Part shown: positions 10,156-14,049 of the stretch, in pieces
How positions within the stretch are numbered: the first letter of the stretch is position 1
How the letters are laid out: the number at the start of each line of letters is the position of its first letter
Source of the DNA: an uncultured Elusimicrobia bacterium
Lineage (GTDB): Bacteria; Elusimicrobiota; Elusimicrobia; 2-01-FULL-59-12
Reading direction: 5' to 3'
DNA length: 43,981 nt
Assembly (NCBI GenBank): GCA_964506645.1
Contig: CAZDML010000004.1
Location: forward strand, 1 to 43,981
The notes under the pieces: model-generated
The model's database searches: none
What the model was told of the DNA's origin: nothing
The model's input: the letters and a program-made list of their open reading frames with translations, nothing else
Made by a program: the position numbers and the translations under genes

Positions 10156-10271
10156 TCATCAAATTCCAAGCTCCAAATAAGCTCCAATAATTAAACATCT
10201 AAACAGGTTTTGTTTTTGTATTTGATGATTATTTGTTTATTTGGTTATTGGATTTTGGTGATTGGAGTTTG
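10148..10271. repeat. Heptamer-built imperfect inverted-repeat element, copy 1
   Basis: Left arm ttccaat-catcaaa-ttccaag-ctccaaa-(taag)-ctccaat..; right arm ..(ttta)-tttggtt-attggat-tttggtg-attggag. Same architecture at 28752 and 32967. Confidence 0.85.
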
Positions 10272-10691
10272 TGAACCATTGTCCTGGCTCAGACGATGCA
10301 GAGTGTCCTGCACATCCGGCAACAGGGCGCTCTTGGGATATTTTTCCTGAAAGGCATTTAATGCGGCGATCGCTTCCGCGCGTTTCCCTTGGCGGGCCTG
10401 TTCCACCGCTTCGCGGTAGACCTTTACTTCGGCGACGTCCACGGCCTGCGATCCTTTCTTTTCCTTCCAATAGAGAGCCGATTTTTCCTGCTTCGCGCCG
10501 CGAAGACCCGCAACACTGGCGGAGCCGGCCGTCGGTTTATTGGCTCGTTGTGCGGTGTGGTCGAGCTTCACCTGAAGTTTTTGCAAGTAATCATTTAAAT
10601 TTTCTACGGGCTGCGCGGTTTCTGCCATCGCGCTTGCGCCGAGTATTGCGGTAAGCCCCAACACCACCAGCCAGTTTGTTCTACGATTCAT
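10245..10691 (-). CDS. Exported hypothetical protein with coiled coil and one TPR-like hairpin (CpoB/YbgF-like C-terminus)
   Basis: AGGAGG RBS before ATG 10691 (MNRRTNWLVVLGLTAILGASAMA = Sec signal); YREAVEQARQGKRAEAIAALNAFQEKYPKSALLPD resembles an outer-membrane-type TPR. Confidence 0.75.
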   Translation of the reverse strand: MNRRTNWLVVLGLTAILGASAMAETAQPVENLNDYLQKLQVKLDHTAQRANKPTAGSASVAGLRGAKQEKSALYWKEKKGSQAVDVAEVKVYREAVEQARQGKRAEAIAALNAFQEKYPKSALLPDVQDTLHRLSQDNGSQTPITKIQ

Positions 10692-10730
10692 ATGACCTCC
10701 TGTTGGATGCTGCTGTTTTTGAAAAATCCC

Positions 10731-10759
10731 TTGCACGAAAAGTCTTTTGGCGTTATACA
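10731..10759 (+). promoter_or_regulatory. Sigma70 promoter TTGCAC-N17-TATACA
   Basis: Hexamers at 10731-10736 and 10754-10759, upstream of the 19-aa sORF. Confidence 0.65.
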
Positions 10760-10798
10760 CAAAGTGTCGTACAAAAAAAACGGGAGGTGAGACCGCTC

Positions 10799-10858
10799 AT
10801 GAAGAAAAAAACCAAGAAGCACGGAAAAAAAGTTAAACGTACCCATAAACGCCGTTAA
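10799..10858 (+). CDS. 19-aa highly basic small protein MKKKTKKHGKKVKRTHKRR
   Basis: GGGAGGTGA RBS 8 nt upstream, own promoter and downstream intrinsic terminator. Confidence 0.65.
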   Translation: MKKKTKKHGKKVKRTHKRR

Positions 10859-10887
10859 GTCCGCCTGAACTCCGGCGGATTTTTTTT
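10859..10887 (+). terminator. Rho-independent terminator
   Basis: TCCGCC/GGCGGA stem, 8-nt loop, followed by 8 T. Confidence 0.8.
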
Positions 10888-10904
10888 CGTCCGGATTTGT
10901 ACGG

Positions 10905-10941
10905 AAACCTCGCCAGCGGGAAAGTGCCAACGGCGGGGTTT
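10905..10941. terminator. Second stem-loop (possible terminator between convergent genes)
   Basis: AAACCTCGCC pairs with GGCGGGGTTT (10 bp, one G-U on the + strand). Confidence 0.35.
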
Positions 10942-10957
10942 TCATTTTAGGATTTTT

Positions 10958-11191
10958 TTATCCAACCAGGAAAATGAGATAGACGCCGCAAAGGAGCGCT
11001 GTCCCTGCGCCTGTCACCATCGTGAAAGGAAAAGTCGATTTGAAATGAACGAGGAGTCCGGACGACGTGCTGAGGGCGCCCGCGTGTCGCTGGTTTTCAC
11101 GCCACACCTGATAACTGCGCACACAGGTGACGATGCCCCACAAGAGGCCTGCTCCGGCATAGACAATTTCGTTTCCGTCGTGAGGTCTCAT
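10958..11191 (-). CDS. Small two-TM hypothetical membrane protein (77 aa)
   Basis: Two hydrophobic segments (IVYAGAGLLWGIVTCV; FTMVTGAGTALLCGVYLIFLVG); no competing better ORF. Confidence 0.55.
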   Translation of the reverse strand: MRPHDGNEIVYAGAGLLWGIVTCVRSYQVWRENQRHAGALSTSSGLLVHFKSTFPFTMVTGAGTALLCGVYLIFLVG

Positions 11192-11439
11192 CGTAGGCGG
11201 AGTTTAACGCCAGATCGACGGTAATGCAATGGAAAATCAATAGCGTGAGGAAAAATTTACGACTTCGTGAGCCGATGCCGCCGGACATTGTACGCGGCGA
11301 GGTCGGGTCATGGCGGCAGGCGTGTTTCGCTGCACTCCTCAGGGCTTCATGGGACCGGCAAAGGCATGCAAGAGGAGACCCGCTAAAATGACATAAGTTA
11401 AATTTGGTCTAAAAATAGAAGCAAAATCGACAGCCAGAC

Positions 11440-11892
11440 CTACCGTAGCCAGTCTTGATGAAACTCTTGCCCGTCCCACCAAATCAGGGAATACGACGTG
11501 TCTTTTCCGCAGCCGATGGCGGTGTTTTTCAGAGAAATCTCTTCTGTTCCTTTATAAATACCTGGGGGGCGTATGTCCAGGGGATCACAGTAGCGAGCAT
11601 TTGGGACGGGCATCATGCGGTAGGCGATGTGGGTGGTTCCGGAGGAGAGGGCGACCAAGAGTGTGGTGCAATAAAAGGAAGGATCACAGTCGTCTGGTTT
11701 CAAAATCAGGGCATAATCGGCCTGATGGTCCCCGTTCAAGTCGCTGCTGACCCATCGGTCCACCGGATCCATGGGGTAGCGTTCAGATAAATACGTCTGG
11801 ATATTTTTTGGGAGAGTCTCGGTCGGCGCTCCCGCCGATGCCGGAAGCGAGCTTAAAGACAGAAGAACGGAAAGAAAGAAGCGGGTCCACAT
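11440..11892 (-). CDS. Secreted hypothetical protein (150 aa) with DxNGDxxxD Ca-binding-like loop
   Basis: Sec signal MWTRFFLSVLLSLSSLPASA; DLNGDHQADYA motif; four Cys. Confidence 0.75.
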   Translation of the reverse strand: MWTRFFLSVLLSLSSLPASAGAPTETLPKNIQTYLSERYPMDPVDRWVSSDLNGDHQADYALILKPDDCDPSFYCTTLLVALSSGTTHIAYRMMPVPNARYCDPLDIRPPGIYKGTEEISLKNTAIGCGKDTSYSLIWWDGQEFHQDWLR

Positions 11893-11934: not shown

Positions 11935-13884
11935 TTATGCGGCCGTGTCGATGCGTCGTTTGGATTTTCGGGCAGGAAGCGGCGCAGGGTCGGCGTCTTC
12001 CCCTGAGGAATGGAAAATGGTGAGGGTATGCGTCTGGGGATCATATAGCGGCTGCTTCAACAGGTAGTCCGGACTGGCCCAGAACAGCAACTCATCCACT
12101 TCATCGCGCGATAGATACTGTCCGTCACGCACAATGCGAATAATCGCTTCTTCCTGGTTCTGCGAGACCAGAAGTTTCCAGGCGGCCAGTGCGGCCATAG
12201 AAGGAATATCGTGATAGGTGCTCTGCGCGAAACCGCGCAAGCCGCCGGGGACCGCGATTTTTACTGTATGTAAATGTTGCTCGATGCTTTCCCGGGCGGA
12301 TACCAGGAGTCGCAAGAGCACGGGCTGGTCGGTTTTGTGAAGTTCGCTTAAAAGACGCAGACGATGGGTCAGGGTCAGCAGCTTCTTGTACTCAATGAAT
12401 AGAATCCCTGGGATTTTTTCCAGGGCCATGTGAGACATATCCAGTATATGCGTGATCAAATGAGTGTCACGGCCCAGCAGGGTCCTAAAAGCAGCGCCAT
12501 GGTTTTTCCAGATCCATTGCTGTTGAACCAGCAGTTGACCTTCCGGAGGCACGGCGACCAGAACCGTCTTTTTTGTGCTGTGCTTGGAGGGATCCCAGAA
12601 GAGCAGGGGTTTTTTCCTGGGAGCCGCGGCTGATTTTAAAAGAATATCCTCCCACACCCGCTCAAGCATATCGTGCTGCTCCTTGAGCTTAGAGCGCGGG
12701 TGATGCGCGAGCAGGTGCAGTCCTTTGGGTCGGCCGAGATAAATGTCTGAAAACGATAGGCCCGCGTGCGACTGTCTTTCATGTTTGCGATTTTCGTGAT
12801 CCGCATCCGAAGAGGCCGTCCCCTGGGCAGAACGGACGAGGGTCCACAAGGGTTGCTTTTCAGGGAAGAGATCCGGAAATTGGCCGCGCAGAATTTGTAA
12901 ACAGGCCATCAGGTCAAACCCTTCTACGTCCAGCGCATTTTGAATGCGGTCCAGGAGCGCGCGGTGTTGGTGCACAAGCTGGCCTACCGCAATATCCTCG
13001 TCATCCGAATCGGTAGGCGGATGAATGATCAGGGCTGATTGAAGTGCACGGGTAAAGTCGCGCAATTTTTCGATATCTGCAGGCCCGGCTTCTCCATGGG
13101 TGAGCCGAAGGCTGATCGCCTGCATTTCTGGAGCCACTGATTCGATGAGCATCGGATAAATGTTCACGTCGATTTCGTCCACGCCAGAAAGAAATTCGTT
13201 GCGCAAGTGATACCCTTGCAATGCCAGAAGCCGGAGCGCGGCTTCCGGGTAGTGCGCCAGTCGGACCGCCCTTTCTGAAAATCGGACGTGGTAGGCGGCC
13301 GCGGCATGAACCATCCAGTCCCACACGGTGGGCAGCGTATTCGGCCAGGCATCCTCAGTTTTGACCCAGCCGTCCAGGAGATGTTGGGCTGTCTTAAGCA
13401 AGGGCGCGGCCTGAGCTTGCGGAATATCCCCTTCCAGAATTCGCTCCATGACTCGAATCAAATTTTCGTCGCGAGGGTTTTTTAAATCCACATCGAGCAA
13501 ACCGGCGCTAAGGAAAAAACGGTCCCAGGCGGACTCTCCGCTGCCGCTTTTGTGAATTCGAACACCGGGCGGAAGGCTCATGCCTATCGCGATGGGAATT
13601 CCGGAGGGATGGTCCTCGGCATGGCTCCATGTCCAGTTTTTATGAAGAGTCAACGGGGAGTTCTGCCGGATTTTCCAATCGATTGGGGAATGTCCAGTAA
13701 AGGCAACGACCAGTAGAACTGTAAGCGCTTCGGATTCCGTCCGGGGGGTGTAAGACGCATCCCCTGGAGCCGCGTTTGAACGAGGTATTTCTACTAACGG
13801 GAGCGCAGCGGCGACCGCAGGCTCAAAGCCCAGGCAGAAAGCAAGCACCACCGCGGCGCAGCGAAGGAAGAGTTTGTTCGTCAT
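11935..13884 (-). CDS. Hypothetical protein (649 aa from MTNKLF) of the conserved-leader/AA-tail family
   Basis: Leader MTNKLFLRCAAVVLAFCLGFEPAVAAA aligns in register with the two giant ORFs; ends KRRIDTAA. No recognisable domain. Confidence 0.8.
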   Translation of the reverse strand: MTNKLFLRCAAVVLAFCLGFEPAVAAALPLVEIPRSNAAPGDASYTPRTESEALTVLLVVAFTGHSPIDWKIRQNSPLTLHKNWTWSHAEDHPSGIPIAIGMSLPPGVRIHKSGSGESAWDRFFLSAGLLDVDLKNPRDENLIRVMERILEGDIPQAQAAPLLKTAQHLLDGWVKTEDAWPNTLPTVWDWMVHAAAAYHVRFSERAVRLAHYPEAALRLLALQGYHLRNEFLSGVDEIDVNIYPMLIESVAPEMQAISLRLTHGEAGPADIEKLRDFTRALQSALIIHPPTDSDDEDIAVGQLVHQHRALLDRIQNALDVEGFDLMACLQILRGQFPDLFPEKQPLWTLVRSAQGTASSDADHENRKHERQSHAGLSFSDIYLGRPKGLHLLAHHPRSKLKEQHDMLERVWEDILLKSAAAPRKKPLLFWDPSKHSTKKTVLVAVPPEGQLLVQQQWIWKNHGAAFRTLLGRDTHLITHILDMSHMALEKIPGILFIEYKKLLTLTHRLRLLSELHKTDQPVLLRLLVSARESIEQHLHTVKIAVPGGLRGFAQSTYHDIPSMAALAAWKLLVSQNQEEAIIRIVRDGQYLSRDEVDELLFWASPDYLLKQPLYDPQTHTLTIFHSSGEDADPAPLPARKSKRRIDTAA

Positions 13885-13900
13885 TAAAATACCTGCGAAA

Positions 13901-13928
13901 AGTATAGGGGGTTTTGAGCAGCAGACAA
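13901..13928 (-). promoter_or_regulatory. Putative promoter TTGTCT-N16-TATACT, 16 nt upstream of ATG 13884
   Basis: Hexamers read on the minus strand. Confidence 0.5.
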
Positions 13929-14049
13929 ATAGAGCCAAAGTCTATAAATAGGGAGAAAAAGACCCTAAAAAGCCTGGGCCCTTAGGCCTGTATTTTTGCC
14001 CTTCCGATCCATAGATCCACCGACGAGAAGTCGATAGACTTTAGAACGC

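Follow-up and report, generated by a model that had tools for sequence, protein, structure and literature searches.

Does a 19-codon open reading frame (ORF) that gene callers do not report encode a protein that its host keeps and, if it does, what might a peptide so short and so basic be for? The question is raised by a small spacer in the window, the 43,981-nt stretch of DNA analysed here, which belongs to the metagenome-assembled genome (MAG; 2.24 Mb, 53% GC, 217 contigs) of an uncultured Elusimicrobia bacterium. A preliminary description, made from the letters of this DNA, had proposed a stand-alone transcription unit for a Lys/Arg-rich peptide at 10731-10887 and regarded it as a deliberately expressed gene that annotation had missed. 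Having compared the locus with those of relatives, we consider the frame very probably a real, selected protein-coding gene, and we give about even odds (a probability of roughly 0.5) to a fuller reading predicted from the sequence: a translated micro-gene whose product is a free polycation that binds RNA, perhaps in the ribosome.

The 19-codon frame and its orthologues

10799..10858, + strand: the micro-gene, 19 codons plus TAA, encoding MKKKTKKHGKKVKRTHKRR (2.40 kDa, pI ~12)

The codons of the frame (ATG AAG AAA AAA ACC AAG AAG CAC GGA AAA AAA GTT AAA CGT ACC CAT AAA CGC CGT TAA) give 9 Lys and 3 Arg among 19 residues (12/19), two histidines (His8 and His16) and neither Asp nor Glu, a composition that the preliminary description had read correctly; besides its extreme basicity, the peptide is Gly-, Ser- and Thr-rich. 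DNA and protein searches of its own genome found no paralogue, repeat or donor sequence of the micro-gene, and extended versions of the frame are absent from a collection of 15 billion proteins. The only other contig of the species with this locus (Logan SRR8797213) is identical in DNA.

Within this genome, such a frame could be an accident. There are 77,204 small ORFs (sORFs) of 12-45 aa, 75 with a K/R fraction of at least 0.5 and 2.1% with a Shine-Dalgarno (SD)-like 5-mer; about 1.6 would be expected to combine the two properties, and exactly one is observed, the micro-gene ORF. Since chance within a single genome is not negligible, the argument depends on what relatives show.

The relatives are Elusimicrobiota MAGs, among them G002 (MGUR01000058, 'Elusimicrobia bacterium RIFCSPLOWO2_01_FULL_59_12'). 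Direct searches of 41 of them with the short, low-complexity peptide, or with the cassette formed by the micro-gene and its expression signals, returned the query itself only; we therefore walked out from the conserved 148-aa protein encoded next to the micro-gene, reading the DNA upstream of each orthologue of this neighbour (the neighbour homologues P0004, P0005 and P0011 fell outside the locus comparison). This uncovered six distinct peptides of 18-19 aa, counting that of the window's own genome (G000), which share both position and divergent orientation:

G000 (the window): MKKKTKKHGKKVKRTHKRR
L123 (ENA wood metagenome; neighbour 72% identical): MKKKTRKHGKKVKRSHKRR
L125 (Logan SRR22388092): MKKRSKRHARRAPKRSHKR
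G002: MKKRTKRHAKRSSKRRSR
L130 (JGI 3300020921): MKKRTKRHVRRSAKRNRR
G004: MLKRTARIRRRLLRRNRRR

All six are 58-63% K/R, lack Asp and Glu, have a pI of ~12 and share the core MKK[KR][TS][KR][KR]H.[KR][KR]. M1 and K3 are invariant, positions 4, 7, 10, 11 and 14 are always Lys or Arg, position 5 is Thr or Ser, and His8 is present in 5/6. L126/L127 have the same promoter, after which the contig ends. The search for K/R-rich sORFs in relatives that the preliminary description had suggested thus turned up an orthologue with a conserved frame in five other lineages, the SD being kept in five orthologues. ATG-initiated sORFs of 15-25 aa with K/R of at least 0.55 number only six in 2.24 Mb, or 4e-4 expected per 300-nt strand window when the composition of this genome serves as proxy for the relatives, so that a syntenic sORF in five further lineages is a signal beyond chance.

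The pattern of substitutions points to the peptide as the object of selection. Between G000 and L123, ~9.5 of 10.8 synonymous sites differ against ~2.5 of 46.2 non-synonymous ones (pS 0.88, pN 0.05), an excess of synonymous change with a Fisher p of ~1e-8; the two replacements, K6R and T15S, are both conservative. For G002 and L130, pS is 0.71 and pN 0.18, these figures resting, like the former, on 19 codons. Between lineages, Lys AAA/AAG codons are swapped for Arg CGN codons, the nucleotides being rewritten while the charge is kept, which rules out a constraint on the RNA or on the antisense strand as the explanation. An 85-aa antisense ORF (10688-10945, - strand) is not conserved and is broken in G002 and G004. 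Judged by these comparisons, purifying selection on the peptide is strong, within one small Elusimicrobiota clade. Conservation, selection and translation signals across six lineages strongly support the earlier view that the gene is deliberately expressed and was missed by annotation, and we describe it as a new microprotein family within a known kind, the tiny polybasic bacterial proteins. Few bacterial frames in which sequence alone reveals purifying selection are as short as its 19 codons.

Expression signals of the cassette

10731..10736, + strand: -35 element TTGCAC; a TTG[AC]A/G-type hexamer in 8/8 related cassettes, matching 3/6 of the E. coli consensus
10754..10759, + strand: -10 element TATACA, at 17-nt spacing from the -35 element in all 8 cassettes
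10782..10790, + strand: SD sequence GGGAGGTGA, ending 8 nt upstream of the ATG
10857..10888, + strand: terminator 1, a 9-bp hairpin (10857-10882) followed by U8, overlapping the stop codon; -13.6 kcal/mol, z -2.65
10908..10948, + strand: terminator 2 (ancestral), CCTCGCC...GGCGGGG followed by UUUUCAUUUU; -22.8 kcal/mol, z -4.87

The preliminary description had called the promoter near-consensus. This is an overstatement, because TTGCAC-N17-TATACA matches the E. coli consensus TTGACA/TATAAT at 7/12 positions and a promoter scan made no call. Similar promoters occur in the lineage, at the genome's own rpmH (TTGCAT-18-TATAAG) and at a relative's mraZ (TTGACA-17-TATACT). The alignment of the cassettes displays one pattern in 8/8 loci, TTGnAn, a 17-nt spacer with a CTTTTCA core and TAnAnA, and a GTTATAC block is kept in G000, L123, L125, L126, G002 and G004. 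At 10754-10760, the complement of the TATACA element reads TATAAC, which is kept in 6/8 cassettes and may serve the divergent 148-aa gene as its -10 element; in that case the promoters would overlap, and use of one might preclude use of the other.

The SD, reported earlier at 8 nt from the start codon, is indeed there. GGAGGTGA followed by 4-9 nt and ATG occurs only five times in the whole genome, and GGAGGTG(A) stands 7-8 nt from the ATG in five orthologues, with a different spacer sequence in each. The sixth, that of G004 (L013:3028-3130; G004:C3, ~96035-96130), uses nearly all CGN Arg codons and has its ATG 6 nt downstream of the -10 element (TATAGC TTCAGT ATG), a placement that would imply a leaderless mRNA. 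A longer 5' untranslated region (UTR) is found in G002, L130, L125 and L132, with a conserved hairpin, CCCGA...TCGGG (L014:2395-2450 on the - strand, L130, L125 and L132), of eight predicted pairs and little variation; it is missing from G000, L123 and G004 and may stabilise the mRNA. L132/L133 (L132:1351-1500 and L133, NCBI GCA_009772455.1, WNFI01266228.1) retain three elements of the cassette: the terminator, the 5' hairpin CCCGAGAGAGGTCGTCGGG and a promoter reading TTGAAA-17-TAAATA. Separately, one of the five genes with a perfect GGAGGTGA SD lies on contig C3 of the same genome, from 34440 (+ strand), and encodes a 73-aa protein made of two repeats, KVAK(A/V)GVK..(D/S)GYLYF(I/L)DK(Q/A)GDVSRAKM.

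The window has two tandem terminators because a lineage-specific hairpin adds to an ancestral one. The former, missing from the closest relative (L123) and from every other aligned cassette, is the immediate intrinsic terminator noticed earlier, and a terminator scan recovers its 9-bp stem and T-run. The latter has a form, CCyCGCCAG...CTGGCGGGG followed by UUUCGUUUU, that is common to 6/7 cassettes and includes two compensatory pairs. The elements first assigned to the transcription unit therefore stand and its end does not, since through terminator 2 the unit reaches 10948. Terminator 2 has symmetric A- and U-tracts and lies 10 nt from the stop of a convergent 77-aa gene, whose transcription it may also stop. 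Taken together, a sigma-70-type promoter (10731-10759) would yield an mRNA of ~125-185 nt, from whose perfect SD ribosomes would translate a peptide of 19 residues (formal charge ~+12 to +13, neither acidic nor hydrophobic core residues), and transcription would end at the two tandem terminators. A structured small RNA was considered as an alternative product and rejected: Rfam gave only noise matches for the transcript (E >= 0.3, far under gathering scores), the fold of the whole transcript shows no extra structure against shuffled controls (z +0.33), and the conserved folds are the terminator and, in some lineages, the 5' hairpin.

Neighbours, origin and loss of the micro-gene

10245..10691, - strand: divergent neighbour, a 148-aa tetratricopeptide repeat (TPR) protein with a signal peptide; the constant partner of the cassette
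10958..11191, - strand: convergent neighbour, a 77-aa protein with two transmembrane (TM) segments, weakly SdpI-like (PF13630, E = 0.0077)

The 148-aa protein is weakly YbgF/CpoB- and BamD-like, below cut-offs (TIGR02795, 20.9 bits), and appears in JGI records as 'TolA-binding protein'. Every cassette lies 21-39 nt upstream of its gene start, on the opposite strand. The genes past the micro-gene (10958-11191, 11440-11892 and 11935-13938) are all on the minus strand, and the convergent layout recurs in relatives; with no co-directional gene 3' of the terminator, the micro-gene is not a leader peptide, and attenuation of a downstream gene is ruled out with it.

Relatives without the cassette reveal what the site looked like otherwise. 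There the 77-aa gene usually abuts the 148-aa gene as an operon, with a gap of ~20 nt or a fusion (G001, G005-G009 and several metagenome loci), which makes the cassette an antisense insertion that separates two co-directional genes, on the upstream side of the 148-aa gene. As to the flanking genes themselves, in G001 (L011/L020; G001:C4, ~80000-80550) the 77-aa SdpI-like and 148-aa TPR frames form one open frame of 176 aa, which suggests a membrane-anchored fusion replacing the signal peptide. Upstream of the 77-aa gene in the window, at 11255-11271 (- strand), stands CTCACGAAGTCGTAAAT, matching a CTCAnnAAGTCGTAAAAT-like motif that most relatives and metagenome loci keep in front of their SdpI-like gene; it is probably the promoter of the 77-aa-gene operon.

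In a maximum-likelihood tree of 22 neighbour proteins, a single, moderately supported clade (83/73; inner node 91/87) holds all the carriers, L132 with its deleted ORF and L128, which has no cassette; a tree of RlmD from 10 genomes is an unresolved star. The former topology suggests one origin, one complete loss (L128) and one partial loss in which the SD and ORF were deleted (L132). The micro-gene would accordingly have been born once, antisense, in the spacer upstream of the YbgF/CpoB-like gene, in an ancestor shared by one subclade within a family of Elusimicrobiota, and selection on the peptide would have maintained it since. It may have arisen de novo. Descent from a repeat or mobile element is unsupported, the genome holding no paralogous pieces.

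Searches beyond the locus added no member. A hidden Markov model of three peptides, run on 151 genomes of the class, gave spurious in-gene matches only and missed a known member. The degenerate motif M-x-K-[KR]-T... found no new stand-alone copy in 301 genomes of the class; it returned starts of the ribosomal protein bL34, termini of long proteins and random sORFs lacking an SD. The strict motif MKK[KR][TS][KR][KR]H returned, among 401 genomes of the phylum, only G000, G002 and the N-termini of two 510-aa proteins, and a search of the family with the promoter block yielded the three known cassettes and unrelated promoters only. The bL34 starts were caught because bL34 shares MxK[KR]T. In many Elusimicrobiota (L073, L074, L078 and others) this protein starts M[PS]KRTFQP[HN][KRN]RRRK and thereby satisfies the degenerate motif, a caution for motif-based sORF searches. 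A further basic start was observed in other families of the class (L104-L106; G124, G252, G063), where a conserved protein of ~147 aa begins MAKKTPKKGKK.KK, has a TM-like segment and ends in an extended tail of (SHG)n repeats (GSHTSHGSHGSHGSH...); the micro-gene has no relation to it.

The history of the micro-gene is unusually readable, with an apparently single origin in an operon spacer, starts that are SD-led or leaderless, a terminator added in one lineage and an ORF deleted in another. The cassette amounts to a compact natural experiment on the birth, expression wiring and loss of a micro-gene.

Candidate partners of the peptide

What such a peptide does is a separate matter from its being a gene. 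The peptide would stay cytoplasmic, as a disordered polycation docking on a polyanion. The likeliest polyanion would be RNA, with rRNA or the ribosome as leading candidate by analogy with eL41, bS22, bL37 and Thx; we hold an RNA or ribosomal target tentatively, at somewhat less than an even chance. bS22, eL41 and mS38 are tiny polybasic proteins of a small-subunit pocket at the subunit interface (NF047430, PF08213/PF05162). bS22, of ~30-33 residues, forms a bent helix in the h2/h27/h44/h45 pocket of 16S rRNA, and eL41 is a single helix of ~24-25 aa. bL37 (24 aa, mycobacteria) and Thx (Thermus) are lineage-specific mini ribosomal proteins which resemble the micro-gene peptide in their very small size, basic and His-containing sequence, restriction to a lineage and absence from annotation; they are fixed across their whole lineages and their binding sites are known, and no sequence similarity to the micro-gene peptide was detected. 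In Borrelia, bS22 is a ~30-aa protein with 61% K/R that was unannotated and found only by cryo-EM; its gene has been described as a candidate essential one that the compared Borrelia species conserve strongly (PMC10618245). The micro-gene resembles the bS22/eL41/mS38 group in being a free-standing, usually unannotated gene for a product with ~60-68% Lys/Arg and no acidic residues. Its peptide is shorter (18-19 aa) and has no profile match, its mid-peptide Gly, Ser and Pro residues argue against one continuous helix, and its occurrence in a single subclade, with repeated losses, sets it apart from bS22.

Several observations weigh against this reading. K/R-richness together with an SD is statistically unexceptional within this one genome, and profile and PDB searches detect no similarity to any ribosomal or nucleic-acid-binding family. 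The distribution is narrow and patchy: only 3/401 Elusimicrobiota representative genomes carry the micro-gene, other genera of the family lack it at the locus and yield no motif matches elsewhere, and it has been lost at least twice within its own clade (L128, L132), on a tree whose support is moderate and comes from a single 130-column protein alignment. In G004, SD and terminator are both missing, and the stop of the convergent gene is 10 nt away. In L132/L133, deletion of the SD and entire ORF leaves a putative RNA of ~75 nt with no reading frame, a remnant which could mean that the RNA or the act of transcription is valuable in itself. A patchy, loss-prone presence in one subclade is hard to square with a core ribosomal protein, and repeated loss suggests an accessory rather than an essential role; an accessory RNA-binding or RNA-chaperoning function fits better than a core ribosomal one. 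The most specific version, in which a polycation of 18-19 aa, born de novo and antisense, became a stoichiometric ligand of an rRNA pocket in one clade, with orthologues switching between SD-led and leaderless starts, is improbable.

A membrane-active peptide, offered earlier as one reading, is disfavoured: GRAVY is -2.6 to -2.7 in 5/6 orthologues, with at most one or two aliphatic residues after Met1, the G004 peptide (GRAVY -1.76) being the sole orthologue with Leu or Ile, and the micro-gene peptide has no signal peptide. Since five of the six carry no segment that is hydrophobic or amphipathic, the family does not qualify as a type I toxin or membrane-active small protein either. The two other readings put forward earlier, a nucleic-acid-binding peptide and a ribosome-associated one, are plausible candidates.

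The peptide could also be real and its target something other than RNA. It might act locally with the divergent envelope gene (YbgF/CpoB-like), or else on a different acidic partner, for which anionic membrane lipids, polyphosphate and an acidic protein are candidates. This we consider unlikely. The pairing is constant, since all 7-8 cassettes diverge from the same 148-aa gene at 21-39 nt whereas the gene on the far side varies (SdpI-like, RMD1-3/TAtT-like TPR or small zinc-ribbon-like); the promoters seem to overlap, with TATACA and TATAAC on opposite strands, and the patchiness and dispensability of the micro-gene are in keeping with an accessory regulator. A single insertion passed on vertically would, however, equally produce constant pairing. 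Moreover, the 148-aa protein is exported, by virtue of its signal peptide, and the micro-gene peptide is not equipped for export; five of the six peptides offer no segment for inserting into a membrane, hydrophobic or amphipathic; and no link joins polybasic 19-mers to Tol-Pal-type proteins.

Less probable still is a unit that acts mainly at the level of RNA or transcription, the ORF being secondary, either as a small RNA or as a promoter/terminator module that breaks up the former two-gene operon and either competes with the 148-aa gene's promoter or insulates it. L132/L133 speak for it, having kept promoter, terminator and a 5' hairpin identical to that of G002 while losing SD and ORF, and the promoter is the sole element in all 8 loci; the antisense position between two co-directional genes and the symmetric tracts of terminator 2 would also suit such a module. 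Selection at the RNA level cannot explain pN far below pS and the exchange of Lys and Arg codons, nor does it account for a conserved SD and spacing. The mRNA body is unconserved in sequence, unstructured and without an Rfam match, G000, L123 and G004 keep the ORF without the 5' hairpin, and L132 sits on a short branch beside carriers, so that its remnant may be a recent deletion.

Could the peptide be a diverged or truncated form of a tiny ribosomal protein already known, that is, bS22/eL41, the bL34 N-terminus, the bS21 C-terminal tail, bL37 or Thx? Size and composition class would fit, and its start resembles the N-terminal segment of bL34 (PF00468; MPKRT...), with M-x-K-[KR]-T followed by basic residues. 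We hold this to be very improbable. The likeness to bL34 covers only 3-4 residues and, in the genome's own copy (MPKRTYQP...), ends after MxK[KR]T; canonical 46-aa bL34 (rpmH) is found above cut-off in 11/11 genomes of the family (own copy C40:10276-10401, 67 bits), and the micro-gene sORF is absent among bL34 matches at E <= 1. Membership in bS22 (NF047430 / PF08213 COX24_C) fails for lack of a profile match, a six-frame search of the 11 family genomes with NF047430 returning nothing at E <= 10. More broadly, Pfam, NCBIfam and PHROG gave no match, the first two even at permissive E-values (queried as extended frames of 23 aa and 60 aa, E <= 10 and E <= 1). The profile of all six peptides found a single, non-significant match among all PDB chains, the bS21 C-terminal tail (E = 1.2; KRHAKKVQREQRRR against KRHAKRSSKRRSR); a detached bS21 tail or split gene is excluded, the genome's own bS21 (C6:22166-22333) being full length with its basic tail. 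The genome also holds no paralogue, in DNA or protein.

Finally, a functionless chance ORF in a promoter- and terminator-rich spacer, for which its tiny size and the ~1.6 comparable sORFs expected in the genome might plead, is effectively refuted by six orthologues that share frame, length and charge at 4e-4 expected per locus and by a pS of 0.88 against a pN of 0.05.

The narrow distribution and the uncultured host limit the interest of the micro-gene. It nevertheless adds a homology-free family to the tiny polybasic proteins of bacteria, a growing class of which some members (bS22, bL37 and bL38) proved to be overlooked components of the ribosome. Should this peptide turn out to be a ribosome ligand as well, it would be the shortest bacterial ribosomal protein known, and the clade would record a datable gain and, in places, the re-loss of a ribosomal protein.

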